A stretch of 64,000 bases of DNA from an uncultured Acidimicrobiales bacterium (GTDB lineage Bacteria > Actinomycetota > Acidimicrobiia > Acidimicrobiales > DATKAS01), in contig CAVTEI010000003.1 of the NCBI GenBank assembly GCA_963733765.1, positions 501,453 to 565,452 of the forward strand, read 5' to 3'. The notes beneath the pieces were generated by a model. It searched no databases. It was not told the origin of the DNA and worked only from the letters and a program-made list of their open reading frames with translations. The position numbers and the translations under genes were made by a program. Of this stretch, positions 4,049 to 33,060 are shown one piece after another; position 1 is the stretch's first letter, and each line of letters begins with the position of its first letter.

Positions 4049-4656
4049 TCAGCGCGCGATCACGCCGCGCAGCACCTCGGTGTCACTCGGCCGCGGATCG
4101 CCATCTCCTTTTCTGCCGTGACGCTCAGCTCCGGGTACTTGCTCGGGTCGACCGCCGCAGTGAGCACCACGTCGGTGCGCCCGAGTTCGTCGGGGTGGAA
4201 CGTGCCGGCGGAGATGCGGTTCGGCGAGAGCGGCGAGTCGCCCGGTCCCACGAACCAGACCTCGTAGTACTCGCCGGTGGGGAGGATCGGCAGCTCGTCG
4301 GTGCGGAGCCCGAGCACTCTTCCGATTCCGGTCCTTGTGCCAGTCACTACGGCCGTCGCTCCCCCGTCGGGAGCTTGCAAGGTGGCGCTGAACTCGCGCA
4401 CACCGTCGGCGACCTGCTGGGAGCCTGGCCGTCGCGTCACCAGTCCGATGCCGAGCCCGACGACGATGGCCGCGGCTGCGCCAAGAACCAGGGCGCGCGG
4501 CGCTGATCGCCGCGCATGAGGAGGGGGTGTCGTGGAAACGGTTGCCCGCGCGTCTGCCGCGGCCTCGCGAAGCGCGGTGACACGCGCCGTTTCGGGTGTG
4601 CGGTCAACGACAAGTGCGTCGCCGAGGCGCCGGAGCATCTCGTCGTCAGCGGACAT
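4049..4656 (-). CDS. RskA-like membrane anti-sigma factor (apparent frameshift near 4110)
   Basis: Single TM helix, YYEVWFV and ISAGTF motifs; overlaps the ECF sigma stop. One extra base at the T-run near 4110 restores the typical end VTAE.GDGDPRPSDTEVLRG. Confidence 0.75.
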
Positions 4657-5209
4657 CGGTCGCCCCCTCGTAGAGGACGCGTAGGCGCCCGAGTGCACGG
4701 GACTGCGCCATCCGAACCGCACCAGGCCGGCGGCCGAGGATCTCCCCGGCTCCCTCCGCCGTGAGTCCCGCGACGACCCGAAGCTCGAGCAGCTCCTGGT
4801 CTTCCGGCGTGAGACGGGCGAACGCCTCCCGCATGAGCGAACGGTTCGTCGCCTCGATGATCGCCCCGAGCGCGTCACACGAACCGTGTTCGGCGGTCTC
4901 GGGGGGTTCGGCGACACTCACGAGCCGAGCGCGATGCCGATGGCTTTCGCGCACCACGTTGCGCAGGATGCCGAACAGCCAAGCATCGAATCCGGCACCT
5001 CGCCAGGTGAACGTGTCGATGCGATGCAACGCGCGCAGCATGGTCTCGCTCACCACGTCGTCAGCAGTGCCATCGGAGGGCACGCGGCGCCGCGCGTACG
5101 CGAAGAGTCGGGAGTAGGACCGGCGATACAGCTGCTCCCATGCCTCCGGCTCGCGAGTGCGAGCACGCATCACGAGTTCGCGGACATCCGTCTCGACTCG
5201 TTCGGTCAC
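4646..5209 (-). CDS. ECF RNA polymerase sigma factor
   Basis: Region 2 (AWEQLYRR...ADDVVSET...FDAWLFGILRN) and region 4 (LTPEDQELLELR...GAVRMAQSRALGRLR). Confidence 0.9.
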   Translation of the reverse strand: MTERVETDVRELVMRARTREPEAWEQLYRRSYSRLFAYARRRVPSDGTADDVVSETMLRALHRIDTFTWRGAGFDAWLFGILRNVVRESHRHRARLVSVAEPPETAEHGSCDALGAIIEATNRSLMREAFARLTPEDQELLELRVVAGLTAEGAGEILGRRPGAVRMAQSRALGRLRVLYEGATDVR

Positions 5210-5362
5210 ATCACTGCCCCACGTCGCGTTCAAGACGACGGGTATACGGCGGAGCCGCACGCGGTGGATGGTTTGAATCGGGCTGTGACGCGCGCCCGAC
5301 TCCGCGCATGAGAACGATCAGACGTCGGGACCTGCCGACGCACGATCATTCGAGGAGTCCAA

Positions 5363-6292
5363 ATGCGCAATCTCAAGAAGGCATTCGCCGCGGTCGCGGC
5401 CGCGGTCGCAATCGGTGCCGTCGGCGGCACCGCCGCCGCGCAAGGCGACAACGGCGGTGACGGCTTCGGCATCGGCGGCCTGTTCCGTGACCGTGACGGC
5501 GGGGCATGCGCGAGCTCGTTCCCCGGCTTCCGCTTCCGCCTCAACGTCATCGGACTCACGAGCGACGGACGGTTGATCTGCTTCTCGGAGAACCGCCCGG
5601 ACAACGCGCGTGACATCGGCAATGTCACGGGACTGGTCGGAGACACCTCGCTCGTCGGCATCGACTTCCGCCCGGCGAACGGTGAGCTCGTCGGCCTCGG
5701 CAACGCGGGTGGCGTCTACGCCGTCGACCCAGCCTCCGGCGCGGCGACCAAGAAAAGCCAGCTGAGCGTGCCAATGACCGGCACTTCGTTCGGGGTGGAC
5801 TTCAACCCGACCGTCGACCGCCTGCGCATCGTCAGCGACGCCGGCGAGAACCTGCGAGTGAATGTCGACACCGGCGCGGCGAACGTCGATTCGTCGCTCA
5901 CCTACACCGCACCGCCCGCCGCGCCTGTCACCGCGACGGGCGTCGTCGGAGTGGCGTACACGAACAACGACGCTGATCCGAACACCGCGACGACGCTGTA
6001 CGACATCGACTCGATGCTCGACCAGGTGGCGATCCAGTCCCCACCGAACAACGGGATCCTCGGTGCCACGGGCAAGCTCGGTGTCGACACGAGCCCGGTC
6101 GTCGGCTCCGACATTTACTCCATCGTCCGCAACGGCTCGACCGTCGACGTGCTCGGGTTTGCGTCACTCACCACAAGTGATCGCTCGGGCTTCTACTCGA
6201 TCACCCTCGCCACAGGGCGGGCTACCCCGCGCGGCACGTTCGCTCCCAACAACCAGGTGATCGGGATCGCGATCCCGCTGAACCAGCTGTAA
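5363..6292 (+). CDS. Secreted DUF4394-like beta-propeller protein
   Basis: Signal peptide, LVGIDFRPA, GVDFNPTVDRLRIVS, AYTNN and QSPPNNG motifs; GAGGAG RBS upstream. Confidence 0.8.
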   Translation: MRNLKKAFAAVAAAVAIGAVGGTAAAQGDNGGDGFGIGGLFRDRDGGACASSFPGFRFRLNVIGLTSDGRLICFSENRPDNARDIGNVTGLVGDTSLVGIDFRPANGELVGLGNAGGVYAVDPASGAATKKSQLSVPMTGTSFGVDFNPTVDRLRIVSDAGENLRVNVDTGAANVDSSLTYTAPPAAPVTATGVVGVAYTNNDADPNTATTLYDIDSMLDQVAIQSPPNNGILGATGKLGVDTSPVVGSDIYSIVRNGSTVDVLGFASLTTSDRSGFYSITLATGRATPRGTFAPNNQVIGIAIPLNQL

Positions 6293-7439: not shown

Positions 7440-7958
7440 TCACTCCTCCTCCGGCGCTCTCGCTATGAGCGCGATGCGAACAACCACCGTCGGTTCGACC
7501 CGCAGCATCAGGATCCTCGGAGGGTTCAGGCCGAAGTCGCGGATGTCGAACGTCGACTCGCCTTCGAGCCGGATCGTCCGAGCGTCGACGGGAGTGATCC
7601 GCATCACGTCCTGGCACGGCCTCGAGACGCCCCGCAGCGCCAAGTCTCCGGAGATCCGGTAGCGCTCACCCTCCACTCGCTCCATGGCCGTGAGCACCCC
7701 GTCGATCGTCGGGTAGCGAGCGATGTCGACGAACTTCTGCAGCTCGCGATCCTCCAACGAGTTGCCGGATGTCAGTCGCCGCACCGGAAGCGACAGCCGC
7801 CCTGCCGGCGGCTTCGTGGGATCGATCCCATCACCGTCCATGAAGTCGAGCTCAACGAAGCCGTCGATGCCGTCCGCGGTCGAGTGGATCTTGTGCACGC
7901 TCGACCGCGCGTCGACCCACACACGGGACTCGTCGGGCACGATCCGGTAGTGGGTCAC
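7440..7958 (-). CDS. YceI-family (polyisoprenoid-binding fold) protein, no signal peptide
   Basis: S.V...ARSSVH.I, LTSGNSLEDREL, YPTI, GDLALRGVSR, DIRDFG motifs. Start overlaps the upstream microprotein stop. Confidence 0.8.
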   Translation of the reverse strand: MTHYRIVPDESRVWVDARSSVHKIHSTADGIDGFVELDFMDGDGIDPTKPPAGRLSLPVRRLTSGNSLEDRELQKFVDIARYPTIDGVLTAMERVEGERYRISGDLALRGVSRPCQDVMRITPVDARTIRLEGESTFDIRDFGLNPPRILMLRVEPTVVVRIALIARAPEEE

Positions 7959-8065: not shown

Positions 8066-8096
8066 CAGCAATTGACTACGCCACATCGATGTCCGT

Positions 8097-8121
8097 GTAA
8101 ATCGGTGCGATTCACACCGAT
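8097..8121. promoter_or_regulatory. Palindromic operator candidate ATCGGTG-N7-CACCGAT (hydrogenase-locus motif, site 1)
   Basis: Perfect 7-bp inverted repeat at 8101-8121 preceded by GTAA, in the divergent gap; related copies at 19965-19989 and 25684-25708. Confidence 0.7.
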
Positions 8122-8157
8122 GGCGCCACTCGGAGTCGTGTCGTACGGTACCGAGCA

Positions 8158-9267
8158 GTGGAGGAGGCCTCGTCGACGACTGGTACGGACAGCCCACTCG
8201 CGTCGAGATTCGAGCTCGCCCCACCCCGCCGGTTCGTGCTTCCCGCTGTGCTCCTGCTCTTGTCGGAGCAACCAGGCCACGGGTACAGCCTCGACAAGGA
8301 CCTGCGCGATCTCAACTTCGGGAAGATCGATCGACCAACGGTCTACCGCGCCCTGGCGCAGCTCGAGAAGGACGGCCTGGTGCAGTCCCGCTCGGAGGTC
8401 CCCGCGGCCGGGCACGAGCGGCGGGTGTACGGCGTCACGCCGCTCGGCGAGCGTGCCCTTCGCGTCTGGATGAGCGTGATCAAAGAGGAGCGCGACCTGC
8501 TCGGTCGGGTCCTGCGGCGCTACCAAGCGACGGGCACCCTCGACGCGATGCTCTCTGAGGTCGAAGGCGGATGGGCCGCCGGTCTCGGGTCCGGCTGGTC
8601 GCCGGTGTCTCCGACCTCGATGGCACCGCGGCACCTCAGACCTGTCGTCATCGATCCGGACGACCTCCTGAGCGCTGACTTCGAGGACGCTCCGCTCGAG
8701 GTCGAGACCATCACCGTGACGGCGCCGGCGGAGAACCGGGGCACCGACTCGCCGCGGCGATTCGCGCTGACACCCGATCGTTCGGTCGCGTTGATCGAGG
8801 TCCGCTCAACGGTCGGGCCCATCAGCTTCGGGGCTGTTGGCATCACCGGTCACGTCGAAGCGGCCGTCACCGAAGGCAAGGTGAACCCCGAGCCGCCACC
8901 GTCGGCGCACATCGAGATCGCGGTCGACGGCTTGCGTTCCGGCAACAGCCTCTACGACGCGGAGCTACTGCGACGCATCGACGCCCGCCGCTTCCCGACG
9001 GCAACGATCGACCTTTCCGAATGCATGGTCAGCAGTACGAGCGGCCGCTACCGCGTGTCCGGTGAGCTCACCTTCCACGGAGTCACCCGCTCGGCGCATG
9101 GAACCGTGAACGTCGCCGAGCGCCCGGGCGGAAGGCTCGTCATCACCGGCGAACAGGTCTTCGACATTCGTGACTTCGACGTCCCGTCGCCGACAGTGCT
9201 CATGCTGCGCATCTACCCGGACGTGCGAGTCCACCTTCACGTCGAAGCCGAACTCGAGGAGGAGTAG
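8158..9267 (+). CDS. PadR-family winged-helix regulator fused to a C-terminal YceI-like domain
   Basis: N-terminal LLLLSEQPGHGYSL...PTVYRALAQLEKDGLV...RRVYGVTPLG (PadR); C-terminal LRSGNSLYDAEL...FPT...GELTFHGVTR...DIRDF (YceI). Confidence 0.85.
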   Translation: MEEASSTTGTDSPLASRFELAPPRRFVLPAVLLLLSEQPGHGYSLDKDLRDLNFGKIDRPTVYRALAQLEKDGLVQSRSEVPAAGHERRVYGVTPLGERALRVWMSVIKEERDLLGRVLRRYQATGTLDAMLSEVEGGWAAGLGSGWSPVSPTSMAPRHLRPVVIDPDDLLSADFEDAPLEVETITVTAPAENRGTDSPRRFALTPDRSVALIEVRSTVGPISFGAVGITGHVEAAVTEGKVNPEPPPSAHIEIAVDGLRSGNSLYDAELLRRIDARRFPTATIDLSECMVSSTSGRYRVSGELTFHGVTRSAHGTVNVAERPGGRLVITGEQVFDIRDFDVPSPTVLMLRIYPDVRVHLHVEAELEEE

Positions 9268-9269
9268 CG

Positions 9270-9539
9270 ATGATCGCGTTCGTGGCGCTGCTGGTCGGAT
9301 ATGTCATCGGAGCAAAGGCGGGCAGCAAGGACCTCGACGACGTGGTCGGGGCCCTGAAGCGGCTCGGCGGAACCCAAGAGTTCGCAGATGTCGTCACCGC
9401 GACCCGTAGTCACCTCGGTCACACGTTGCGCGAGCTCGCGTCAGTAGTGGACTCACCAGGAGCGGCGACAGAGGAAGCCTCCGACCTCGTCGACCGGGTC
9501 AGACATCTCTTCGCTGGAGACGCCCAGTCCGTCGGCTAG
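9270..9539 (+). CDS. Small membrane-anchored hypothetical protein
   Basis: N-terminal hydrophobic MIAFVALLVGYVIGAKAG, GGAG RBS, 2 nt after the PadR-YceI stop. Confidence 0.65.
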   Translation: MIAFVALLVGYVIGAKAGSKDLDDVVGALKRLGGTQEFADVVTATRSHLGHTLRELASVVDSPGAATEEASDLVDRVRHLFAGDAQSVG

Positions 9540-10319
9540 GCGCGGTCCGTGACGTCCTGGCCGATGCCGCGCAGTCCGACCACAGAGCCATCCGACCCGA
9601 TCATCGGTTGACCGCGCGCGTGGACGGTACGGACGGCCTCGTCCGGTCGGACAACGCGGTACTCGTGCTCGAACGCGCGGCCTGACTCGACCGACGCCTC
9701 CATAGCGGCTCGCACCGAGTCCCGGTCGTCAATGTGGATGGCGCGGAGATGAGCATCGAGCGTGCCGTCGAACGACAGCGGGTCGACGCCGTGAATGCGG
9801 TGGTACTCGTCGCTCCACTGCACCGCCCCGGTCCGGAGGTCCCACAACCAGCTCCCGACGCTCGCCAACGACTCGCTCTCGCGAACCCTCGCCTCGACCT
9901 CAGCCAAGCTCGCCTGTGCGAGACGCTGCTCGGTGATGTCGCGCGCGATGAGGACCGCCGCCGCCGGTACGCCATCGTCGCCAAACACCGGGCAGAGCGA
10001 GAGCGAGATCGGCACGGGCATGCCATCCTTGCGCAGGATCTCCGTCTCGAAGTGGTCGACGCGATCCCCCGCCATGGCGGTCTCGATCATGGCCTCCACC
10101 TCGCCCCGGAGATGATCGGCGAACACGTCGATGCACTGGTGGCCAACGATCTCTTCGGCGCTGAACCCGAAGAGCCGCTCGGCAGTCAGGTTCCACGTCA
10201 TCACCCGCGCGGCTCGCGTCCTGGCTCAAGATCGCGTCCTCGGACGTCTCGAGCACCGCGTCGAGCACGGCTCTCGCCGAGACCGCGGAGACCGACGTGG
10301 ACGGGCGGGGCTTGGTCAT
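9536..10319 (-). CDS. Tandem PAS-PAS protein without output domain (apparent frameshift near 10210)
   Basis: N-terminal SEDAILSQD in one frame joins MTWNLTAERLFGFSAEEIVG...RKDG...RDITE; second PAS_3 (GSWLWD...WSDE...IH.DDR...QDVTDR) then stop. Confidence 0.8.
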
Positions 10320-10347: not shown

Positions 10348-11119
10348 CTATCGTCCGGCGGCTCCGAGCCAGGCGCACCACTCGTCGACGCCCTGCCCGG
10401 TCTGCGCGCTGACCTCGATCACGCGGACATCGGGGTTCACGTCTTGCAGGTGCGTGAAAAAGCGATCCAGATCGAAGTCGAGGTGCGGAAGCAGATCGAC
10501 CTTGTTCACCAGCACGACGTCGACCGAGCGGAACATCACCGGGTACTTCAGGGGCTTCTCCTCACCTTCGGTCACCGCGTACACCATCGCTCTTGCGTGC
10601 GCTCCGACGTCGAACTCCGCGGGACATACGAGGTTGCCCACGTTCTCGATGAGCAAGACAGTCAATGGCGTCGAGCGGCAGCCTGCTCAAACCCGAGCGC
10701 ACCATGACCGCATCGAGGTGGCACTCGCCACCGAAGCCTGCGCTGGTGTTCACCAGTGAGATCGCGGCCCCGAGCCCTGAGAGCTGGTCGGCGTCGAGGC
10801 TGGTGGCGATGTCGCCCTCGAGCACACCGACCCGACACTTCTCGCCGAGCGCGACGAGTGTTTGCTTCAGCAGGGTCGTCTTGCCCGCGCCGGGAGACGA
10901 CATGAGGTTCACCGCCCACACGCCGCTTCTGTCGAGGTCGGCGCGGTTCCGCTCGGCAACCCGGTCGTTCTCGGACAGGATCGACTGGAGCACGGCCACT
11001 CGGGATGGGCCGGTCTCGACATAGCCGCTGTGGTCTCCCACGTCCCGATGGTCGTGCTCGTGCTCGGGGTCGTCGTGCTCGTGCTCGGTGCCGTCAGCGT
11101 GACGATGGAAGCGCCCCAT
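10348..11119 (-). CDS. hypB: Hydrogenase nickel-incorporation GTPase HypB (apparent frameshift near 10660)
   Basis: His-rich N-terminus, SSPGAGKTT, GGECHLDA; then IENVGNLVCPAEFDVG, EGEEKPLKYP, NKVDL in the next frame. Confidence 0.92.
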
Positions 11120-11463
11120 CAGCGATCGCCCCCGACGAGATCGAACGAGGCGAGCTGGAGCTCGTCTCCGCTCACGAGCTCGACGTTGTGGCTTTCACAT
11201 TCCGAGCAGGCCAGGACCGGCCACGAGAGCGTCGTCTCGGCGCCGCACTCTCGACAGCACACAACCGCCGGCACGTGCTCGATCGCCAGCGCACAGCCCT
11301 CCAGCTCGGTGCCCTGCGTGAGCATCTCCCACGAGAACTGAAGGGAGCCGGGCACGACCTGTCGCAGGTAGCCGATCCGCACGTCGACGCGGCGAACCGG
11401 TCGGCCTGTCGCGCGCTGGCCGACCGTGTCGAGGATGGCCTGGCACAGAGACAGCTCGTGCAT
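11119..11463 (-). CDS. hypA: Hydrogenase nickel chaperone HypA
   Basis: MHELS start, CxxC...CxxC, GDEL. Confidence 0.93.
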   Translation of the reverse strand: MHELSLCQAILDTVGQRATGRPVRRVDVRIGYLRQVVPGSLQFSWEMLTQGTELEGCALAIEHVPAVVCCRECGAETTLSWPVLACSECESHNVELVSGDELQLASFDLVGGDR

Positions 11464-11479
11464 CAGCGCCACCCCATCG

Positions 11480-12613
11480 TCACACCGACGCCCGACCGAG
11501 GGTGACCGCGGCCTCGCGATGTAGCCGTCCGAAGTTGTAGTACGCGGCGCACGCTCCCTCGGACGACACCATGCACGTGCCGATCGGCGTCTCGGGTGTG
11601 CACGCGGTGCCGAAGACCTTGCACTCCCACGGCTTGATCACACCCTTCAGCACTTCGCCGCACTGGCACGCCTTGGGGTCGGCGACGCGAACTCCGGGCA
11701 CCGCGAAACGCAGCTCCGCGTCCCACGGCGCGAACTCCTCGCGGAGCTTGAGCGCGCTCTGCGCGATGAAGCCGAGGCCCCTCCACTCGAAGTGCGGTCG
11801 TAGCTCGAACACCTCGGCGAGGAACTGAAGCGCGCGGGGGTTGCCCTCGTCGCGAACGATCCGCGTGTACTGGTTCTCGATCTCGCAACGCCCCTCGCGG
11901 ATCTGAGCCAGCAACATCGCGATGGCTTGCAGGATGTCGAGCGGCTCGAAGCCGGCCGTCACGAGCGGCTTTCCGTAGTCACGCGCCACGAACCGATACG
12001 GGTGGTTGCCAACGACGGTCGAGACGTGGCCGGGGCCGAGGAAGCCGTCGAGACGCAGGTCGGGCGAGTCGAGGATCGCCTTGATGGGCGGCACGATCGT
12101 CACGTGGTTGGAGAAGACGCTGAAGTTCATCACCCGGTCATCGCGGGCCTTGACGAGGGTGACGGCGGTGGAGGGCGCCGTGGTCTCGAAGCCGACGGCA
12201 AAGAACACAACCTGCCGGTCGGGGTTGTCGACCGCCACCTTCAGCGCATCGAGCGGCGAGTAGACGAACCGCACGTCGGCGCCGCGAGCCTTCGCTTCGA
12301 GCAACGTCCCGTTGCCTCCGGGCACGCGCATCATGTCGCCGAAGCTCGTGAAGATGACACCCGGGGTTTCGGCGACGGCGATGGCGTCGTCGATCCTCCC
12401 CATCGGGATGACGCAGACCGGGCAGCCCGGGCCGTGCACCAGCTCGACGTTGCGAGGCAGCACGTGCTCGATCCCGTGCCGGTAGATGGTGTGCGTGTGG
12501 CCCCCGCACACCTCCATGAACTTGTAGTGGCACTCGGTGCCGGCGAGCTCGGCGATGGTCGCGAGCACGCGGCGCGAGGCGACCGGATCGCGGTACTCGT
12601 CGACGAACCTCAT
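11480..12613 (-). CDS. hypD: Hydrogenase maturation protein HypD
   Basis: MEVCGGHTH, GPGCPVC, GFETT, PGHVS, CMVSSEGACAAYY. Confidence 0.97.
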   Translation of the reverse strand: MRFVDEYRDPVASRRVLATIAELAGTECHYKFMEVCGGHTHTIYRHGIEHVLPRNVELVHGPGCPVCVIPMGRIDDAIAVAETPGVIFTSFGDMMRVPGGNGTLLEAKARGADVRFVYSPLDALKVAVDNPDRQVVFFAVGFETTAPSTAVTLVKARDDRVMNFSVFSNHVTIVPPIKAILDSPDLRLDGFLGPGHVSTVVGNHPYRFVARDYGKPLVTAGFEPLDILQAIAMLLAQIREGRCEIENQYTRIVRDEGNPRALQFLAEVFELRPHFEWRGLGFIAQSALKLREEFAPWDAELRFAVPGVRVADPKACQCGEVLKGVIKPWECKVFGTACTPETPIGTCMVSSEGACAAYYNFGRLHREAAVTLGRASV

Positions 12614-12879
12614 GGCGCGGTGCCTCTCAGCATCTCCATCTCGTCGTCGAGGCCCGACCCCATCAGCCGAAGCGAAGCCAGTGCAACCGCCGCCTCCTCC
12701 TCGTCGATCTTCGACATCGCGAAGCCGACGTGGATCAGCACCCAGTCACCGACCTCGAGCGCCTCGTCCTCGAGCAGTCCGATGTTGATCATCCGGCGCA
12801 CGCCCGACACCTCGACGCGCGCGAGCTGGTCGTTGTCCGGAACGAACTCGACGAGCTGACCGGGTATGCCAAGACACAT
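12610..12879 (-). CDS. hypC: Hydrogenase chaperone HypC
   Basis: MCLGIPG start and GDWVLIHVGFA. Confidence 0.96.
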   Translation of the reverse strand: MCLGIPGQLVEFVPDNDQLARVEVSGVRRMINIGLLEDEALEVGDWVLIHVGFAMSKIDEEEAAVALASLRLMGSGLDDEMEMLRGTAP

Positions 12880-12909
12880 GTCCGAAGCTCCTACTGCTCG
12901 GTCATCGGG

Positions 12910-13029
12910 TCACATCCGCCGGAGACGGCGATACCGCGAGATGTCCGGTATCGAGATGAGAACGAAGACGATCGCGGCGAGCACCAGCACCACGACGATG
13001 CTGATGAAGACGATCCCGAGTACTTCCAT
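12910..13029 (-). CDS. Small membrane protein, 39 aa (DUF6893-like), copy 2
   Basis: Not in the ORF track. MEVLGIVFISIVVVLVLAAIVFVLISIPDISRYRRLRRM; fills the gap in the operon. Confidence 0.75.
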   Translation of the reverse strand: MEVLGIVFISIVVVLVLAAIVFVLISIPDISRYRRLRRM

Positions 13030-13032
13030 GGG

Positions 13033-13137
13033 TCACATCCTCTTGAGGTTGAGGTAACGGCGGACCTCGGGCGCGATCTCTCTCAACACGACGACGGCAC
13101 CGGCGAGGAGGGCGAGCATCATCAGGCGACGGAGCAC
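13033..13137 (-). CDS. Small membrane protein, 34 aa (DUF6893-like), copy 3
   Basis: Not in the ORF track. GTG start after a strong [10 protein letters not shown]; MLRRLMMLALLAGAVVVLREIAPEVRRYLNLKRM. Confidence 0.75.
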   Translation of the reverse strand: MLRRLMMLALLAGAVVVLREIAPEVRRYLNLKRM

Positions 13138-13595
13138 GGGTCACTCCTTTCTGCGAGGAAGTCCTGGACGACGCGGACGGCGGGCTCCACGGCAGCGGCG
13201 ACGGCCGGCGACAGCCCGATGCCCTCGCCTACGTCGGCGGGCTGACACCCGACGATGACCACCCTGCCGACCCCGCCGCCGAGCTCGGCCACCATCCTGA
13301 GCACGGCATGGGGGTCCATCCGGTGGGCGTCGAGCGGTTCGGCGTCGGCGCCTTCTGGGTCGGGCTCCAGCACACACACGGTGCCGGCACCGTCGCCAGT
13401 TGCCATCGCGTCCACGAGCACCAAGAGGTCCACGCCTTCAAGGAGATCGAGCGCGAGATGCAGCCCTCGGATGCCGTAGTCGATGACGGTCACCTCCGGG
13501 GGGAGAGGACGATCCTGCAGGTGTCGGGCGACCTCGCATCCGAAGCCGTCGTCACGGTTGAAGATGTTCCCGATCCCCGCGACGAGCGTCTTCAC
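13122..13595 (-). CDS. Hydrogenase maturation endopeptidase (HybD/HupD family)
   Basis: LVAGIGNIFNRDDGFG, DYGIRGLHL, VDA, DAH.MDP, VGCQP, GLS. Confidence 0.92.
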   Translation of the reverse strand: MKTLVAGIGNIFNRDDGFGCEVARHLQDRPLPPEVTVIDYGIRGLHLALDLLEGVDLLVLVDAMATGDGAGTVCVLEPDPEGADAEPLDAHRMDPHAVLRMVAELGGGVGRVVIVGCQPADVGEGIGLSPAVAAAVEPAVRVVQDFLAERSDPCSVA

Positions 13596-14926
13596 AGCGG
13601 CTCGACTTCGTCGGGGTGGAAGTACATGTAGCGGCCATGCCACTGATGCAGATCGGCGGCTTCGTCGTCGTCGAGGACGACGGCAACGTGCTGGTCACCG
13701 TCGACATCGAAGAAGACACCCTCGACGGTCGCCTCGCGTCCCGCGAGGAACAAGTCCTGCGCATCGGTGCGTCGCCCCGCGACCTGGCCGGGACGGAGCC
13801 GCACCTTGCTTCCCTTGCTCACGTCGACGCCGCCGATGCAGATCGAGTCCTCCCACGGGTTCACCGACCCATCCACGGCCGGCTCCCACCACGGCAACGC
13901 CGCGTCGGCGGCCGTCGAGAGGCCGAGCGCTCGCATCTCACCATGAAGGCTCGCGAACACATCCGGAGAGAATCCCTCGATGCGGTCGACGATCGCCGCG
14001 GCGCGCGGGTCAGTGCTGCGGGCGAGACGCTTCTCGTCATCGGTCAACGTCAGGATGCGCAACGCGAGGATCTCGTCGATCTCGGTGGCGTCGCACATGT
14101 CGCCCGGGCTTTGCGCAGCGACCGCGGGATAGTCGTAGAGGATGATCGGCGAGGACAGCACCGTGCTCGCCTCGCCCGGCTCGCCGACGAGGACCGGAAA
14201 CGTGCCCTCGTTCTTGCAAGTGTCGATCGCGGCCCTCGCGAACTCTGGAGGCTCGAGCAGCGAGATGAAGCGCGCGTCCTCGGAGTGCAACAGCGTGTGG
14301 ACCGCGACGAGCGATCGGCGCATGGCGTGGTCGCGGGCTACCTGGGGCTCGCACCCGTCGGTGACGTTCTCCACCGTAACCCTCAGCTTGGTCAGCGGGT
14401 ATGGCCCCGGACAGTGCTCGGTCTCGAGTCGGACCAGACCGTGCACCGGCCACCGCTCGCGCACGACGCGGCCCCGCCCACCGAGCAGCTCGACCTCGCG
14501 CCCACCACCGAGCACGATCGGGACCTCGCGCATCCCTGGTCGGGTGAGGTCGAAGCCGGGGACGTCGAGTGAGTGCTCCACGGCCTCGTCCCAGCTCGCC
14601 CACAGCTCGCCGTCGACTTCGAGCTCGGCCACGGGCTTGTAGTCAGTGGCGACCGCTTCTTCAACGGTGCGGGCCTGCACCTGGAGGAACCGCAGCCGGA
14701 TGTCGACCTTGGCCTCGAGCCCGAATTCGAGCACGCATTCGGTTTGCATCGTCCAGCGCTCGTAGCCGTCCGCTTCGCTGAATGCTCGAGGAGCGAGGAC
14801 TCCGTACTGCCACCGCACCTGGTTCTTCGCCGCTGAGGCGCGGTAGGGATAGAGCACGTATCCCTCCCACAGCACCGCGTCCGCGACCTGCTGCGCGCGA
14901 ACGAAGAGATCATCGTGGCCGCTCAC
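13592..14926 (-). CDS. Conserved accessory protein of group 1h hydrogenase clusters
   Basis: ADAVLWEGYVLYPYR, SSPIILYDYP, DATEIDEIL, DAQDLFL and GRYMYFHPDEVEPL motifs; coupled to neighbouring genes. Confidence 0.75.
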   Translation of the reverse strand: MSGHDDLFVRAQQVADAVLWEGYVLYPYRASAAKNQVRWQYGVLAPRAFSEADGYERWTMQTECVLEFGLEAKVDIRLRFLQVQARTVEEAVATDYKPVAELEVDGELWASWDEAVEHSLDVPGFDLTRPGMREVPIVLGGGREVELLGGRGRVVRERWPVHGLVRLETEHCPGPYPLTKLRVTVENVTDGCEPQVARDHAMRRSLVAVHTLLHSEDARFISLLEPPEFARAAIDTCKNEGTFPVLVGEPGEASTVLSSPIILYDYPAVAAQSPGDMCDATEIDEILALRILTLTDDEKRLARSTDPRAAAIVDRIEGFSPDVFASLHGEMRALGLSTAADAALPWWEPAVDGSVNPWEDSICIGGVDVSKGSKVRLRPGQVAGRRTDAQDLFLAGREATVEGVFFDVDGDQHVAVVLDDDEAADLHQWHGRYMYFHPDEVEPL

Positions 14927-15552
14927 TCCGCCTCCTTGAGGAGGCGTTCGAACGTGTCCTCCCAAGAGGTCAGTGCGCGCTCGGCCTTGTAGCGAGTGAG
15001 CGCGTCGATCGTCTCGCGGCTGACGCGGATCCAACCACTGTTCGGGAAGAAGCTGTCCATCGTCGCCCGCCACACCGCGACCGGCAGGCGGTGCTCCGCC
15101 TCGACGTTCCAGGGAACCGGCTGCACGACGAGCCCCCCGTTGCGATAGCTGAACACCGTGCCGCTGAACAGCAGGACGATCGGGATCTCGCCGTCGCCGA
15201 TCGAGTGCAGGTACTTCGCTGCCGCCACCTCGAAGTCGTACGAGCACGGAACGGGGAGATCGACCTCGACACTGCCCGCGAACTCAGCGACCGTCGTCGA
15301 CACGTGTGTCCACAGGAACGGCTTGACGGTCTCACCCCAACGAGGCGCCTCGCCGAAGAGCTCGACCATCCGCTGCTCTTCCGCTTCGGAGTAGCGACGG
15401 CGCTGCGGTTCGATGCGAATCTGCACCTTCAGCACCATCGCGTGCACAGGCTCGGCTTCAGGTGCCTCGATGCGCAGCCGCAGCTGCAGCGTGGGCGACG
15501 CGGCGTAAGGGTCGGGCTGGCTCGACAGCACCGTGACCGCGAGATCGGTCAT
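14923..15552 (-). CDS. DUF6084-like hydrogenase accessory protein
   Basis: QIRIEPQRRRY, ELFGE..RW, PCSYDFEVAAAKY, LLFSGTVF. Confidence 0.75.
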   Translation of the reverse strand: MTDLAVTVLSSQPDPYAASPTLQLRLRIEAPEAEPVHAMVLKVQIRIEPQRRRYSEAEEQRMVELFGEAPRWGETVKPFLWTHVSTTVAEFAGSVEVDLPVPCSYDFEVAAAKYLHSIGDGEIPIVLLFSGTVFSYRNGGLVVQPVPWNVEAEHRLPVAVWRATMDSFFPNSGWIRVSRETIDALTRYKAERALTSWEDTFERLLKEAE

Positions 15553-16160
15553 CGCGCTCGCTCCCGGAGACGCTCGAAGAACGCGTCCATCGCTTCGCGC
15601 GCTTCGGTACCCCCGTCGAATCCTTTCCAAAGGCGACGCAGCTCGCCGACGAGCTCGTAACACGCGTCGATCGGAACGAGGAACGCGTCCCCGTGCTTCG
15701 CGTCGCGTCGGACCAACAGGGCCTCGACGTCGGCCTCCATGGTGCCGAGCACCTCGTTGTCGGCGACCAGTCGGTCCCAGGCGTCGAGCGGGAGCAGCGA
15801 CTCGGTTGCACCGGCAGGGCTCGGGTAGAAGGCAGCGACGGAGCCGAGCGTCGAGTTGAAGAAGAAAAACGCGACGCTCACCGGTATCTGCAGCTCGTCC
15901 CACGCCCCCGGTGCGATCGACAGCTCGCCGAGCGCCAGGTAACGATCCGGGACGGCGCGGTACTTGCCGCCCCCAGCACCGTGGCTCGTGAACAGCAGCC
16001 AGCATCCCCGACACGTGCACATGAGCGAACGGCTCTCGGTGTTGACGACGTGCTCGTGCTCGTCGGGAACGAGCTCACCGCACATGTCGCACCGCTCGCC
16101 GGGCCGCGGTCGAGCCGGCGCTTGGCGGATCCGCTGGAGGACGGCGAGCGGGTCCTTCAT
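15549..16160 (-). CDS. DUF5947-like hydrogenase accessory protein
   Basis: ERCDMC...H.H...LMCTCRGC, YPSPAGATES, PIDACYELVG..R..WKGFDGG. Confidence 0.75.
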   Translation of the reverse strand: MKDPLAVLQRIRQAPARPRPGERCDMCGELVPDEHEHVVNTESRSLMCTCRGCWLLFTSHGAGGGKYRAVPDRYLALGELSIAPGAWDELQIPVSVAFFFFNSTLGSVAAFYPSPAGATESLLPLDAWDRLVADNEVLGTMEADVEALLVRRDAKHGDAFLVPIDACYELVGELRRLWKGFDGGTEAREAMDAFFERLRERAR

Positions 16161-17020
16161 CGAACCGCCGCCACTGCGATGCGGACCTCGCCACCCTCCT
16201 CGATCAGTGGCAGCGGGTCGAGATGAGTGGTGTTGCCGTCGAGGCTGCGCCCGGCGCGGGGCAGGTCGTATGCCGCCCCGCACACGGCGCAGCGCAGGAC
16301 GGGACCGTCCACCGTGGCCGTATCGAGGACGCTGTCGCAGGTCGGGCAGGCACTGCGATACGCGTACAGCTGCGACTCGACCCTGCACACGATGAGCTTG
16401 TTGCCCTCGATCTCCAGCGGCCCGACCCGTCCGGGGGCGAGCGCACGCAGCCCGTAGATCGGTGCCATCGCGGGTGCGGGAGCGGGCTTGCGTCCGAGCG
16501 TGACGGGCATCCATCCGTCCGCGGCCTCGCCGGTCGTCGGCTCCCCTCCCTCCACAGAGATCGAGGTGATCTCCGGCGCCGCCTCCTCGATGGCTCGCTG
16601 GACGGCGAGCTCGAGCGTGACCGACGACGACGCGCACCCGTCACAGCTTCCGAGCATCCGCAACGTGACCACGCCCGCGTCCGCGTCGATGGAGATCACC
16701 TCGACGTCGCCGCCGTGCGACCCGAGATAGGGCCTGACCGACTCGATCGCCTCGTGGACGCGCTCGGCCAGCCCGAGGGGGTGGAGGTCGTGAAGGACGA
16801 GCAGAGACGCGACGAGATCGTCCCCCGCCATCTTGTGCAGAAGCGCGTCATCCTCGCCCGCGAGCTCGAGGATGCGGGCGAGTCCGCCGCCGTACAGCTC
16901 GGTCACGAGGCTGACGACGTCTTGCACCTGCTCCCAGCTGCGCCCGTCCAGTGACGATTCGAGCTGGTCGAGCATCTGCTCGATTCGGTCACCGATGGCT
17001 CGCAGGTCGATCGGTTCCAT
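16157..17020 (-). CDS. NifU-domain/Rieske-like Fe-S protein (HhyE-like)
   Basis: VRPYLGSHGGDVE and GSCDGC (NifU_C); C-terminal CPTC...CAVC Rieske-like domain; directly after the large subunit. Confidence 0.85.
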   Translation of the reverse strand: MEPIDLRAIGDRIEQMLDQLESSLDGRSWEQVQDVVSLVTELYGGGLARILELAGEDDALLHKMAGDDLVASLLVLHDLHPLGLAERVHEAIESVRPYLGSHGGDVEVISIDADAGVVTLRMLGSCDGCASSSVTLELAVQRAIEEAAPEITSISVEGGEPTTGEAADGWMPVTLGRKPAPAPAMAPIYGLRALAPGRVGPLEIEGNKLIVCRVESQLYAYRSACPTCDSVLDTATVDGPVLRCAVCGAAYDLPRAGRSLDGNTTHLDPLPLIEEGGEVRIAVAAVR

Positions 17021-17050: not shown

Positions 17051-18829
17051 TCAGCTGTCGATGGTGGGGAATGCCGTGGGGGAGTGCTCCTTGTGCAACA
17101 CCTTGCCCTTGCCGAGATACATGTGCACACCGCACGGGAGGCACGGGTCGAAGCTGCGTACCGCCCGCATGATGTCGATGCCCTTGAAGTTGTCGAGGGA
17201 GTTCTCCTCGAAGATCGGCGTGTTCATGACCGCGTCCTCGTACGGTCCGGGCGTGCCGTAGCTGTCGGTGGGATTCGCGTTCCATGGCGTCGGGGGATAC
17301 GGGTGGTAGTTCGCGATCTTTCCGCCCTTGATCACCAGGTGGTGCGAGAGCACGCCCCGCACCGCTTCGGTGAAACCGCAGCCGATCGCCTCGTCCGGCA
17401 CCTTGAACTCGGCCCAGGTCTTCGTGTGGCCGGCCCGGATCTCCTCGAGGGACTTCTCCGCGAAGTGGAGGGCGGCCGCGGCGGCGTACGCCTGGAAGTA
17501 GGTGCGGGCGCGGTTGCGCTCGATGGTGTTCGACCACTGCGGGATCTTCCACTCGAGGGAGACCTCGGGCTTCAGTGCCGTCTTCGGAAGATGGATCTCG
17601 ACGCTGGTGCCGGTTGCCTTGATGTTGTTCGTGTTGACCAGGCCGGAGAGCGCGGTGGACCACAGCCGTGCGATCGGTCCGCCGCCGGTGTCGAGCGCGA
17701 GGTGATCCGTGCCGTCGAACCACCGCGGTGACATGACCCAGCTGTACTTGTCGGAGAAGTCACGCTTCTGCGGGTGCGGGTTCGTGTGCTGGTTCCAGGG
17801 ATGGCGCCGGTCGACCGGGTTCCCGAGCGGATCGGTCGTCACGAACATCTCCTGGCCTTCCCAGTCGTCGTAGTACGACGAGCCGAGAAGGATCCGGATG
17901 CCGAGGTTGATGTCGACGAGTGAGTTCGTCACGAGCTTGCCGTCGACGACGACGCCGGGCGTGACGAACATCGCCCGACCCCACCCGGCCATGTCGCGGT
18001 ACTCGAAGTTGCAGACGTCGGGGTCTTGGAACGCGCCCCAGCAGCCGAGCAGGACCCGGCGGCGGCCGTTCTCCTCGTAGCCCGGCATCGCGGTGTAGAT
18101 GAAGTCGAAGAGATCGTCGTGCATGGGCACGACCTTCTTCATGAACTCCACGTACCGCATGAGCCGCGTGATGTAGTCCGTGAAGAGCTGGATGGTCGCA
18201 GTGGTGCCGACCCCGCCCGGATAGAGCGTCGATGGATGAACGTGCCGTCCCTCCATGAGACAGAACATCTCCCGCGTGTACCGCGACACCTGCAACGCCT
18301 CGCGGTAGAACTCGCCAGAGAAGGGGTTGAGCGAGCGCATGATGTCGCCGATCGTGCGGTAGCCGTGCGCCTCGAAGTGCGGCGACTCCGTCCGGTTCGC
18401 CTGCTCGAGCACCCCTGGGTTGGTCTCGGCGACCATCTTCTCGCAGTAGTCCACTCCGACCAGGTTCTCCTGGAAGATGTTGTGGTCGAACATGTACTCC
18501 GCGGCCTCACCGAGGTTGACGATCCACTCACCGAGGTTCGGCGGACGCACTCCATACGCCATCTGCTGCGCGTAGCACGAGCACACCGCGTGGTTGTCGC
18601 CACAGATGCCGCAGATGCGGCTCGTGATGAAGTGCGCGTCGCGCGGGTCCTTGCCCTTCATGAAGATGCTGTAGCCGCGGAAGATCGACGAGGTGCTCTG
18701 GCACTCGGCGACCGTTCCCTTGCCGAAGTCGATCTTGGTGTAGATCCCGAGACTCCCGACGATTCGGGTGATCGGGTCCCACGCCATCTCGACGAGGCCG
18801 TTTGCGTCCGGGGTCTTGGTCATCGCCAT
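17051..18829 (-). CDS. hhyL: Group 1h [NiFe]-hydrogenase large subunit
   Basis: L1 TSRICGICGDNH and L2 SFDPCLPCGVH, characteristic of group 1h (former group 5); WDPITRIVG start; C-terminal extension. Confidence 0.95.
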   Translation of the reverse strand: MAMTKTPDANGLVEMAWDPITRIVGSLGIYTKIDFGKGTVAECQSTSSIFRGYSIFMKGKDPRDAHFITSRICGICGDNHAVCSCYAQQMAYGVRPPNLGEWIVNLGEAAEYMFDHNIFQENLVGVDYCEKMVAETNPGVLEQANRTESPHFEAHGYRTIGDIMRSLNPFSGEFYREALQVSRYTREMFCLMEGRHVHPSTLYPGGVGTTATIQLFTDYITRLMRYVEFMKKVVPMHDDLFDFIYTAMPGYEENGRRRVLLGCWGAFQDPDVCNFEYRDMAGWGRAMFVTPGVVVDGKLVTNSLVDINLGIRILLGSSYYDDWEGQEMFVTTDPLGNPVDRRHPWNQHTNPHPQKRDFSDKYSWVMSPRWFDGTDHLALDTGGGPIARLWSTALSGLVNTNNIKATGTSVEIHLPKTALKPEVSLEWKIPQWSNTIERNRARTYFQAYAAAAALHFAEKSLEEIRAGHTKTWAEFKVPDEAIGCGFTEAVRGVLSHHLVIKGGKIANYHPYPPTPWNANPTDSYGTPGPYEDAVMNTPIFEENSLDNFKGIDIMRAVRSFDPCLPCGVHMYLGKGKVLHKEHSPTAFPTIDS

Positions 18830-18833: not shown

Positions 18834-19892
18834 TCAGCTCCACGTCTTCGTGTGTCCGGAGGTCAGCTCTCGACCCTTGACCCGCCACGACGGCTCCTTG
18901 TTGACCGTGCGATTCGTCATCGACCGCAGTCGGCGCACCGCCGAGCCGTACAGCCCGCTGGCGACCGTCGAGACGCGAGCGCCCGGCGGCTCGTCCATGA
19001 AGGGCATGAACTTGTCGGGGAAGCCCGGCATGGTGCAGCCGATGCAGATGCCTCCGACGTTCGGGCATCCGCCGACACCGTTGATCCACCCGCGCTTGGG
19101 AACGTTGCAGTTCACGACCGGACCCCAGCACCCGAGCTTCACGATGCACTTCGGCGAGCCGTACTCCGTCGCGAAGTCGCCCTGCTCGTAGTACCCGGCT
19201 CGGTCACAGCCCTCGTGCACGGTCGCTCCGAAGAGCCACTGCGGTCGAAGCGCGTCGTCGAGCGGGATCATCGGGGCTTGGCCGGTCGCCATGTACAGCA
19301 GGTACAGGATCGTCTCGGAGAGGTTGTCGCCTTGCACGGGGCAGCCCGGTACGCACACGATCGGGATGCCGGCCTTCGATTTCCACGACCAACCGAGGTA
19401 GTCGGGCACGCCCATTGCGCCGGTGGGGTTGCCGGCCATCGCGTGCATGCCGCCGTAGGTCGCGCACGTGCCGACTGCGACGACGGCGAGAGCCTTCGGC
19501 GTGAGGCGGTCGAGCCACTCGCTCGTCGTCATCGGCTGATCGGTTTCGGGGTTGTTGCCGAACCCGCACCAATAGCCCTCGCGCTTGATCGCCTCGTTCG
19601 GAATCGAGCCCTCGACGATCAGCACGAACGGCTCGAGCTCGCCTCGATCCGCCTTGAAGAACCACTCGAGGAAGTCATCCGCACCGCCGTTGGGCCCGCA
19701 CTCGAAGTCGATGAGCGGCCAGTGGACAGCGATCTTCGGCAGACCTGGGAGAGCGCCGAGCGCGATCTCCTCGATGCTGGGCTGCGTCGCCCCGGTCAGC
19801 GCGACGGAGTCTCCATCACAGCTGAGGCCCGCATTGATCCACAAGACGTGGATCACGGTCTCCTCGGGTGGGGCTTCCTTGGTCGCAGGCAT
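18834..19892 (-). CDS. hhyS: Group 1h [NiFe]-hydrogenase small subunit
   Basis: WINAGLSCDGDS, GTCATYGG, PGCP, VHEGCDR, CIVKLGCWGP, GGICIGCTMPGFPD; no Tat signal. Confidence 0.95.
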   Translation of the reverse strand: MPATKEAPPEETVIHVLWINAGLSCDGDSVALTGATQPSIEEIALGALPGLPKIAVHWPLIDFECGPNGGADDFLEWFFKADRGELEPFVLIVEGSIPNEAIKREGYWCGFGNNPETDQPMTTSEWLDRLTPKALAVVAVGTCATYGGMHAMAGNPTGAMGVPDYLGWSWKSKAGIPIVCVPGCPVQGDNLSETILYLLYMATGQAPMIPLDDALRPQWLFGATVHEGCDRAGYYEQGDFATEYGSPKCIVKLGCWGPVVNCNVPKRGWINGVGGCPNVGGICIGCTMPGFPDKFMPFMDEPPGARVSTVASGLYGSAVRRLRSMTNRTVNKEPSWRVKGRELTSGHTKTWS

Positions 19893-19964
19893 TGGCGAAC
19901 CTCCCCCGCGCTGGTGAGTCGGCTCCCCGAGCGCAGTGTCACATTGCCCCCATCCGTGCAGCAG

Positions 19965-19989
19965 GTAAATGAGTGCATTTCTCACCTAG
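19965..19989. promoter_or_regulatory. Hydrogenase-locus motif, site 2 (upstream of hhyS)
   Basis: GTAA-ATGAGTG-CATTTCT-CACCTAG, same geometry as site 1 with three mismatches. Confidence 0.6.
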
Positions 19990-20025
19990 TGCCCGATTCG
20001 CGACGTCGGCGTACCGTGGCCGGGG

Positions 20026-25660: not shown

Positions 25661-25708
25661 ATGGTACGTCGTGGTGACGAGGCGTCAATCGGTGCAATCG
25701 GCACCTAT
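25661..25708 (-). promoter_or_regulatory. Promoter TTGACG-N16-TACCAT for the SIS-hypC/hypEF operon, adjoined by hydrogenase-locus motif site 3
   Basis: -10 at 25661-25666, -35 at 25683-25688; ATCGGTG-CAATCGG-CACCTAT at 25688-25708. Confidence 0.65.
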
Positions 25709-25723
25709 CGACCCACGGCCGTA

Positions 25724-31788: not shown

Positions 31789-32031
31789 TCACTGCTGGTA
31801 GCCCTCGACCATGCCTTCGGGCCGCACCTGTGCTCCCTCGGGATCCTCGCCTGCGTTCCGCCGCGCCCGACGCTGGCGCAGTAGGTCCCAACACTGGTCG
31901 AGCGCGACCTCGATCTCCTGAAGGCGCCGAAGCTCTTCGTCCGACGGTGCCGTGCCCGCGTGGGCACGTTCCAACGCGTGTTCGTCTTCGACAAGGGCGC
32001 TGATACGCCGCACGATCTCGGTCTCATCCAT
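31789..32031 (-). CDS. DUF2630-like small protein
   Basis: LDQCWDLLRQRRARR and VEGYQQ motifs. Confidence 0.8.
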   Translation of the reverse strand: MDETEIVRRISALVEDEHALERAHAGTAPSDEELRRLQEIEVALDQCWDLLRQRRARRNAGEDPEGAQVRPEGMVEGYQQ

Positions 32032-33007
32032 GGCGCGTCTCCTCAATGTCGGGGGCAATGTGCGACCGGCCGAGGACTGCGCCGTCGCGCAGCACCGACA
32101 CGGGTCCGTCCTCGCTCACCGCGATGACAGTGGCGGCCGGGTCGTCGCGGCTGTAGCGGCGACCGGACGTGTGACGAGTCCCGCCGAGCGCGTCGACGGT
32201 CTCCTCCGCGGTCGTGCTCGGGATGAGCCGCACGCCGAGGCGACGCAGGACACCGCGTTGATCGAAGATCGCCGCGCCGTCGACTTGCGAGAGCGAGTGG
32301 CGGAGCGCGGCGAGATGCGTCGGACGGCGGATGTCGAGCGGAGGCGGCGTCGGCAGACGGTCCTCGACGGGCGGGCCGCCATCCGCCTCCGGTCGGTACA
32401 CGAGGAGTGCCCCGATGCCCATCGATCCGAGGTCGTGGACCGCGAACTCGAGCATCGCCGTCAGCACATCGGGATCACCCTGCGCGCCGCCCGCCGTGAC
32501 TGCCGCGATCCAGGTGTCGACGGGAGGTTCGTAGTGCCAGCCGTAACCGTCCCAGCGCGCGACGCCGAACGGGCCCACGACCCGGACGGCCCCCCCGGGG
32601 TGGCGTTGCACGAGGGACGCTTCGAACGCGTCGGCCAAGACGACCAGATCGCGCTCCGATCCGGCCGGCCGATCGAAGATCACCCACTCGTTGTCATCGT
32701 CGACGCGGCGCAGCAGCCAGCTCGACAGCCCGTCGGCGAACCGACGGGCTGCGGGCAGAGGCTGATGATCGAGGGGCTTCCGGGTGATCTCGAGCCCACT
32801 CGTCTCTGACCAGTGGCTGGGATCAGCGAGCGGCTCGACGATCGTCCCGCTGCTCGGCACCCGGCGCTCGTGCACCGGAGGCCTCAGCGCGAGGTCGATC
32901 TCTTCGAGCAACAGGTCCCGGACTCGGCCCGACGTGTCCCAGCGGACACCACTCTCCTCGAGCTCCTCGGCGAGACGGCGGCGCCGCCTCGCCCCGGCGT
33001 CAGGCAT
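32024..33007 (-). CDS. DisA_N/diadenylate cyclase-domain protein
   Basis: C-terminal IGALLV...VDGAAIF...GGTRHTSG...AVSEDG; N-terminal region not recognised. Confidence 0.75.
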   Translation of the reverse strand: MPDAGARRRRRLAEELEESGVRWDTSGRVRDLLLEEIDLALRPPVHERRVPSSGTIVEPLADPSHWSETSGLEITRKPLDHQPLPAARRFADGLSSWLLRRVDDDNEWVIFDRPAGSERDLVVLADAFEASLVQRHPGGAVRVVGPFGVARWDGYGWHYEPPVDTWIAAVTAGGAQGDPDVLTAMLEFAVHDLGSMGIGALLVYRPEADGGPPVEDRLPTPPPLDIRRPTHLAALRHSLSQVDGAAIFDQRGVLRRLGVRLIPSTTAEETVDALGGTRHTSGRRYSRDDPAATVIAVSEDGPVSVLRDGAVLGRSHIAPDIEETRHG

Positions 33008-33060
33008 GGCCGGGACGCTATCCCCGAGATCGGGTGGCACCTACCGGGCGTCGCGCCGCT

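Follow-up and report, generated by a model that had tools for sequence, protein, structure and literature searches.

What role does a PadR-type DNA-binding domain fused to a YceI-like barrel play beside a hydrogenase gene cluster? The question is raised by a 64,000-nucleotide stretch of DNA (hereafter the window) from an uncultured Acidimicrobiales bacterium (assembly GCA_963733765.1, contig CAVTEI010000003.1), in which a PadR-YceI fusion gene (8158..9267, + strand; GTG start, 369 amino acids) accompanies the genes of a NiFe hydrogenase of the group-1h (Hhy) type. The answer favored here, with a probability of roughly 0.55, is that the fusion protein is a one-component regulator dedicated to the Hhy regulon, in which the barrel acts as the sensor. 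The features that support this answer are (i) the domain architecture, (ii) the folds of both domains, (iii) synteny, (iv) a conserved DNA box with genome-wide specificity, (v) the failure to find that box where the fusion is missing, and (vi) the modularity of the barrel. For atmospheric hydrogen, the principal biological sink is the high-affinity group-1h hydrogenases. Two papers treat their induction and the transfer of their electrons to the respiratory chain as open questions (PMC13098282, PMC6883350); the first leaves open how Hhy is induced, while the second, which describes HhyE as a NifU-like protein associated with group 1h, leaves open the electron acceptor.

An alignment of 55 homologues divides the fusion protein into four parts: a conserved PadR winged helix-turn-helix (wHTH; residues 31-102, 8248..8463), a conserved helical extension with a GGW..GWSPVS segment (residues 103-153, 8464..8616), a variable linker (about residues 154-200, 8617..8757), and a conserved YceI-like β-barrel, presumably of sensor type and designated F-type (residues 201-369, 8758..9264). 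Both domains are recognized by Pfam well above the respective cut-offs, with PF03551 (PadR) at residues 31-102 (E 2.2e-15, 56.8 bits, cut-off 27) and PF04264 (YceI) at residues 228-364 (E 9.1e-12, 46 bits, cut-off 23.7). Among the NCBIfam families, the named PadR equivalogs are not reached (PhaQ, 58.5 bits against a cut-off of 139; Rv3488 family, 27.6 against 140), and the match to an acidobacterial PadR paralog family likewise falls far under its cut-off. Residues D58, R59, P60, Y63, and R64 of the wHTH and W104, M105, R121, Y122, G137, W139, S148, and V150 of the helical extension are invariant, while the linker is acidic, contains proline, and differs in both length and sequence among the homologues.

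The AlphaFold2 model built from the same alignment has a mean predicted local distance difference test (pLDDT) score of 73 and is confident for the wHTH and the barrel, with values below 50 across residues 129-194, which points to a disordered linker. The wHTH, which resembles PadR subfamily 2, is modelled with helices at residues 24-37, 42-51, and 59-71 and wing strands at 75-80 and 88-93; a long C-terminal helix (95-125) leads into the extension, followed by a second helix (129-138). By analogy with other PadR proteins, the helix in residues 103-153 would serve for dimerization. The barrel strands extend over residues 200-366, mostly at pLDDT 75-94. Foldseek against the PDB places BcnA first (5ixh; E 1.2e-11, template modelling (TM) score on the target 0.86, root-mean-square deviation 2.3), and further YceI-type matches, identified by their entry titles, include the polyisoprenoid-binding protein TT1927b (1wub) and E. 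coli YceI (1y0g). The PadR matches rank below the barrels (6abt, 5zi8, 5dym; TM(target) 0.80-0.87) and agree with a profile search of PDB sequences, which also retrieves PadR proteins such as 2esh and 6abt. A reading of the letters and open reading frames (ORFs) of the window (hereafter the sequence-only reading) had proposed an N-terminal PadR wHTH, a Pro/acidic linker, and a C-terminal YceI domain. Pfam, alignment, AlphaFold2, and Foldseek bear this out, and by its predicted fold the C-terminal domain is a YceI-type, lipocalin-like extended barrel.

Fused genes in a metagenomic assembly may also result from a missed stop or a frameshift that joins two genes, and indel errors of one base do occur in other genes of the window (hypB near 10656-10661, a PAS gene at 10211). 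For the PadR-YceI gene this explanation is refuted and retains next to no probability. Contigs from three public sediment-metagenome DNA runs cover 8158-9267 with no insertion or deletion listed there, and one of them crosses the linker without gaps (8479-9206), although the best-matching run may be the sample of origin and the runs are thus not fully independent. Moreover, both parts are matched in 55 of 63 loci recovered from species-representative genomes, nearly all of them metagenome-assembled genomes (MAGs) of Acidimicrobiia, and PF03551 occurs together with PF04264, the architecture that the sequence-only reading had suggested searching for, in each of the 120 top-ranking relatives out of 1,021 in the database. 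The two damaged genes differ in this respect. hypB is split across two frames (ORFs 10562..11119 and 10348..10665, - strand), and one base near 10656-10661 is missing in all four public runs compared; one base at 10211 in the PAS gene is missing in the three DNA runs. Because the metagenome runs lack those bases, the split hypB is probably an assembly error rather than a pseudogene, and the truncation of the PAS gene probably has the same cause. In the 222-residue PAS ORF the beginning of the first PAS domain is missing; an overlapping ORF (9900..10319) supplies an N-terminus matching the 280-residue orthologue at L008. At many related long-read MAG loci (L007, L014, L020, L047, L050, L063, and others), genes are broken into several tblastn pieces, which fits frequent indel errors.

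The hydrogenase cluster of the window is complete for its type and runs on the minus strand. It comprises hhyS (18834..19985 as listed; Pfam NiFe small subunit), hhyL (17051..18829; NiFe large subunit), and, in 10348..17020 as identified by Pfam and ORFs, the NifU-like hhyE, DUF5947, DUF6084, the maturation protease, and hypC, hypD, hypA, and the frameshifted hypB; further on lie hypF, hypE, and a HupF/HypC-like gene. The large and small subunits, the NifU-like HhyE, and the hyp genes found by Pfam on the window ORFs make up the gene content of group 1h, and large subunits in other Actinomycetota are 79-83% identical to the window HhyL; the group-1h name is a putative assignment from this gene content and identity.

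Synteny, assessed by tblastn of window proteins against the 63 loci, ties the fusion to this enzyme. hhyS or hhyL is found in the fetched DNA at 56 of the 63 loci, and one of the two lies within 10 kb in the fetched DNA of 53 of the 55 full-length fusions, all from Acidimicrobiia genomes, so that the anticipated linkage of homologues to hhyL holds. The contigs of the two others end 0.8 and 2.8 kb upstream; one shows hypE/hypF and the other a stand-alone yceI. In the window, the fusion diverges from a stand-alone yceI (7440..7958, - strand; 172 residues), an operon-type paralogue designated S-type, and the sequence-only reading took this neighbour to be the regulated gene. The paralogy on which that proposal drew is confirmed, whereas the pairing is not typical: across the 63 loci, the divergent upstream neighbour is hhyS in 48 cases and a stand-alone yceI in only 6; none is seen in 7, and the 2 other loci are themselves YceI-only matches. 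Since hhyS so outnumbers yceI, the target is likely to be the hydrogenase regulon as a whole, with the stand-alone yceI as one of its members; in the common layout, yceI lies inside a long hhyS-to-hypF operon. No other DNA-binding protein among those encoded in the window is conserved in the neighbourhood of the fusion at the 63 loci.

A second line of evidence is a DNA box of 22-26 nucleotides with a GTG-N7-CAC dyad, whose consensus GTAAATGAGTGTCTTTTGCACC is present in 47 of 47 aligned hhyS-fusion intergenic regions. In these regions its distance is fixed to the hhyS ribosome-binding site and variable to a TTGACA-N17/18 promoter-like element on the fusion side. The window holds three boxes. 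Box 1 (8097..8122), between yceI and the fusion gene, contains a perfect palindrome, ATCGGTG-N7-CACCGAT (8101-8121), that occurs without mismatch nowhere else in the 4.2-Mb genome. Box 2 (19965..19990) lies upstream of hhyS in the same position and orientation relative to that gene as in 47 of 47 aligned loci. The weaker box 3 (25684..25709) differs from the palindrome at a single position (expected number of such sites in the window, 0.03) and abuts the -35 element of a promoter-like site for the HupF/HypC-like, SIS, hypE, and hypF unit; this site, TTGACG-16-TACCAT (25688..25661, - strand), was detected by a consensus scan.

When a matrix built from 45 sites of other species is run over both strands of the whole genome, just two sites exceed 14 bits, at 19965 (25.1 bits) and 8097 (21.5 bits). 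With eight more sites from other species added, the top three are 8097 (28.6 bits), 19965 (27.2), and 25684 (15.4), and the best site elsewhere scores 11.8; the three best sites in the genome thus all fall inside the hydrogenase cluster, upstream of yceI, hhyS, and the hyp operon. A looser search of the window with the palindrome pattern at up to three mismatches is uninformative (8 matches against 4.8 expected). Exactly one site above 14 bits is present at 53 of the 63 loci. Most species have the cluster as a single operon with a single box; in this genome it falls into three units, and every unit has a box. Secondary box-like sites in the related loci were rejected as chance matches, as only three exceed 11 bits in 1.13 Mb and all lie within coding regions.

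The box remains with hhyS where the fusion sits 2-8 kb off (L036, L037, L056), and it was not found in any of the three hhy loci that have an hhyS upstream region and no PadR fusion (L061, L069, L070). Mirroring of the GTG-N7-CAC core holds at 46 to 55 of the 55 sites; boxes on the yceI side are fully palindromic (7+7), and at L067 changes on both arms preserve the symmetry (ATCAGTG..CACTGAT). Box 2 also bears on the start of hhyS. The listed GTG start (19985) overlaps the box, homologues align only from about residue 26-42 of the listed ORF, and a Shine-Dalgarno-like CCTCCCCC occurs at 19900-19907; for these reasons the true start is probably near 19890. Next to box 3 lies a divergent gene (25725-27103, + strand) that by eye appears to encode an alpha/beta-hydrolase joined to a class III nucleotide cyclase; it starts about 16 nucleotides from the box and might share its control region.

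These observations are consistent with a simple scheme. A dimer of the PadR part would bind the dyad box, which directly precedes the -35 region of the hhyS promoter, and in this genome, where an ancestral operon appears to have been split into three units, the same protein would act at the boxes ahead of yceI, hhyS, and the hupF-like/hypEF unit. The C-terminal barrel, carried on a long flexible linker, would be the input domain and would probably respond to a hydrophobic molecule of the isoprenoid type, with a menaquinone-type quinone as the leading guess, or to the state of a partner that carries one; such an input would alter DNA binding by the PadR part. Binding of the box, the direction of control (repression or activation), and the identity of the ligand are all steps that we infer. 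A dyad centre near -45 would fit an activator, or a repressor acting at the -35 element; the assignment of -35 and -10 elements at boxes 1 and 2 (with TGTAAA as the -35 complement) is tentative and follows box 3.

Several points weigh against the proposal that the fusion protein controls the hydrogenase regulon through this box. The case is built from genome comparison and models, so that DNA binding, effect on expression, and ligand are each predicted. Most hhyS boxes have just 3-4 of 7 mirrored pairs, where about 2 are expected by chance, and the spacer TCTTTTG shows conservation equal to that of the arms, so that another factor, or the promoter itself, may account for part of the box. PadR-type repressors do not usually bind at a dyad centred near -45. 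A sigma-70 consensus scan returned no site at boxes 1 and 2 and found a promoter at box 3 alone. Variants of the PadR sequence do track variants of the box, but along the same two clades, and this covariation is neither independent nor used as evidence. In the RNA run X23, which represents a small share (0.08) of the stretch, contigs map to yceI, the PAS gene, and hypB and none to the fusion gene, an observation that is uninformative on expression of the fusion. Finally, YceI is optional for Hhy: among 400 other Actinomycetota genomes, 44 (a count that includes G239 and G018) encode a large subunit at least 61% identical to the window HhyL, and the S-type query detects a YceI in only 5 of these 44.

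Some of these points lend themselves to a different explanation, namely that the fusion controls just its own small operon (the fusion and an adjoining gene for an 89-residue protein) or something unrelated, that the box is the site of another factor or an alternative-sigma promoter element, and that synteny with hhy is merely inherited gene order. The asymmetry of the box in most species, its conserved spacer, the lack of a detected sigma-70-like promoter at two of the three boxes, and the variable distance between box and fusion speak for it. A global factor or a sigma factor would, however, leave unexplained why the box is confined to the cluster genome-wide and why it is not found at the three hhy loci devoid of the fusion. 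No other regulator is conserved nearby, and a sigma factor (4646-5260) and a 347-residue ORF (6395-7438) are not syntenic with the fusion elsewhere, apart from a sole match to the latter in L009. Overall, this explanation is judged unlikely, and control of the Hhy regulon by the fusion protein is retained as the preferred reading. The sigma factor itself is of the extracytoplasmic function (ECF) type (4646..5260, - strand) and diverges from a DUF4394 protein gene (5363..6292) that is not syntenic with the fusion at other loci either.

The origin of the barrel informs its possible function. The S-type YceI matches PF04264 over residues 4-164 of 172 (E 4.6e-14, 53.5 bits, cut-off 23.7) and appears to have no signal peptide because the domain leaves no room for one. 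Residues 202-369 of the fusion align with residues 4-171 of this protein at 61 of 169 identical positions (36%; BLASTP E 3e-29), and the alignment holds the motifs SGNSL.D.EL, FDIRDF, and P..LMLR..P.V.V, so that the paralogy of the two barrels claimed from the sequence alone is upheld. So is the claim that the fusion barrel is unlike the canonical YceI of the window (33061..33630, - strand; 189 residues), to which the best BLASTP segment is 14 residues long (E 0.007). The canonical YceI gene lies directly upstream of a DisA-type diadenylate cyclase gene with a DACNK sensor domain (32024..33040, - strand).

With the barrel as query, a search of 1.84 billion representative proteins yielded 753 relatives (E no higher than 0.001), many with lengths of 160-195 residues. 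Trees were computed with FastTree (161 rows) and IQ-TREE in quick mode (67 rows). All fused domains fall inside an F-type clade of 37 rows supported at 99 by the Shimodaira-Hasegawa-like approximate likelihood ratio test (SH-aLRT), while the S-type proteins of hhy operons form an 18-row clade (95) plus a grade. Stand-alone proteins occupy the earliest F-type branches, and the fused domains are nested within the clade; some metagenomic rows without a partner domain may be fragments of fusion genes, and the root, placed by a single very long outgroup branch, is unreliable. Two stand-alone F-type genes are confirmed on DNA. The one in L061 has only 145 nucleotides of intergenic sequence upstream, and the one in L064 (region 6772-10774) follows a 1,057-residue PAS-GGDEF-EAL gene by 41 nucleotides and precedes an 89-residue protein gene, with no hydrogenase within 10 kb. 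Ten long representatives comprise eight PadR + YceI proteins, one protein without a Pfam hit, and one SpoIIE + YceI protein (P0147), a 628-residue metagenome protein within the F-type clade that its source names a GAF-domain protein. The sequence-only reading had the sensor domain arise by duplication of the regulated gene; an origin by duplication at the time of fusion is not supported by these trees. Given the stand-alone early branches and the SpoIIE fusion, the duplication appears to predate the fusion, the F-type barrel being an older paralogue and behaving as a movable input domain.

S-type barrels have their own distribution. Orthologues lie within the hhy operon at 49 of the 63 loci and also occur in three other Actinomycetota families, and stand-alone YceI-like genes at L065 and L069-L071 are located within group-1h operons. 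At a threshold of E 1e-10, 9 of the 400 other Actinomycetota genomes match the S-type query. The YceI gene of G059 and G325 is about 4.3-4.4 kb from hhyL, between DUF6084 and hypA/hypC, and a short contig of G267 has the order YceI-hypA-hypC-hypD. The YceI barrel is hence an optional but recurrent member of Hhy operons; the idea that it is a general Hhy subunit was rejected in view of the few Hhy-positive genomes that have it.

What the F-type barrel senses, if anything, is suggested by its fold. Solved YceI/lipocalin-like polyisoprenoid binders (TT1927b, 1wub; E. coli YceI, 1y0g; B. cenocepacia BcnA/BcnB, 5ixh/5ixg; H. pylori HP1286, 3hpe) share the same barrel (E 1e-11 to 5e-10, TM(target) 0.72-0.86) at only 13-20% identity, and their entry titles make it plausible that the F-type barrel likewise binds an isoprenoid or lipid inside. 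It differs from them in being predicted to be cytoplasmic, in its attachment to a DNA-binding domain, and in belonging to a separate, hydrogenase-linked subfamily. Compared with the S-type YceI of group-1h operons, it is a paralogous barrel of the same cluster, and neither has a recognizable signal peptide; the S-type is a single-domain protein encoded among structural and maturation genes, whereas the F-type forms its own clade and travels with the PAS and 89-residue protein genes.

This company suggests another role for the barrel. The protein might regulate the hydrogenase cluster as proposed, with the barrel acting as a protein-protein module instead of a small-molecule sensor, pairing with the stand-alone YceI, the membrane-anchored 89-residue protein, the PAS-PAS protein, or the hydrogenase, and reporting abundance or state by partner switching or membrane sequestration. 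The candidate partners are conserved neighbours. A tandem PAS-PAS protein without an output domain (9536..10319, - strand, identified by Pfam and split by one extra base near 10211) is encoded at most 1.5 kb downstream of the fusion in 57 of 61 loci. The 89-residue protein (9270..9539, + strand), which has an N-terminal hydrophobic helix, is encoded next to the fusion in 42 of 61 loci; in the window its gene starts 2 nucleotides past the fusion stop, and it also follows the stand-alone F-type barrel in L064. Fusion of the same barrel type to a SpoIIE phosphatase, a typical partner-switching enzyme, points in the same direction, and the flexible 45-residue linker would suit tethering. Conversely, every solved fold relative is by its entry title a lipid or isoprenoid binder, the 89-residue protein is missing at 19 of the 61 loci, and interaction with any partner is hypothetical. 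That protein has no match in Pfam or NCBIfam and, in the Atlas, falls only into unnamed Actinomycetota clusters along with a YtxH-like lead at 0.82; a predicted complex of it with the F-type barrel (residues 195-369) scores 0.01 against a mark of 0.32 and counts neither way. On balance, a protein-module role is rather improbable without being negligible, and the barrel of the fusion is better regarded as a candidate small-molecule sensor.

Comparison with characterized systems places the fusion between familiar and unfamiliar designs. Short PadR regulators, including L. lactis LmrR (3f8b), M. tuberculosis Rv3488 (5zhc/5zi8), a Listeria protein (6abt), and TM0937 (2esh), agree with the fusion in the sequence and fold of the wHTH and in the long C-terminal helix that comes after it, and B. 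subtilis PadR with operator DNA (5x11) is the paradigm for DNA binding by this type. Another shared feature is a DNA element of dyad symmetry beside the promoters of neighbouring genes. Known short members sense ligands at the dimer interface or through a small C-terminal helical domain, whereas no PadR structure among the PDB matches has a YceI barrel. Further differences are the centre of the putative site near -45 and the target, which would be a hydrogenase cluster.

Mycobacterial Huc, a group 2a enzyme, reportedly receives menaquinone through HucM. This invites the hypothesis that the S-type YceI is a quinone carrier; the likeness is one of idea only, that of a soluble high-affinity hydrogenase in need of a membrane-quinone handler, and no relation in sequence or fold is claimed. 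Known hydrogenase control, as summarized in PMC13098282, includes an H2-sensing regulatory hydrogenase with HoxJ/HoxA in Cupriavidus and DosR together with catabolite control in M. smegmatis. The system proposed here would resemble both in placing uptake-hydrogenase genes under a locally encoded or dedicated regulator. Unlike the HoxJ/HoxA system, it involves no sensor hydrogenase, histidine kinase, or response regulator, and the input would be a lipid-binding barrel, possibly aided by a PAS protein. An extended version of these ideas, speculative and improbable as a whole, would have the S-type barrel carry menaquinone between the membrane and soluble Hhy, and the F-type barrel represent a new class of cytoplasmic sensor that reads this same quinone, the redox state it is in, or how far the carrier is loaded. 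The outputs of this class would then be PadR (transcription), SpoIIE (partner switching), and the PAS-GGDEF-EAL neighbour (cyclic di-GMP). If it were true, there would be a direct link between hydrogenase expression and the state of the respiratory quinone pool.

No paper on this system was found among those listed for YceI with hydrogenase, PadR with YceI, PadR with hhyL, or PadR with uptake hydrogenase or Acidimicrobiia, in a search that left subscription journals and bioRxiv supplements outside its reach. The analysis adds the box with its genome-wide specificity and the putative three-promoter regulon, evidence that the F-type barrel is modular and probably of older origin, and a check of the fusion at read level. 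The YceI barrel is thereby pointed to as a reusable cytoplasmic sensor domain, a role on which no paper was found in the same search. The fusion protein is the best candidate for the dedicated regulator of the Hhy enzyme, and the locus offers a concrete candidate regulator together with a 26-bp DNA site for an abundant, mostly uncultured lineage of soils and sediments.

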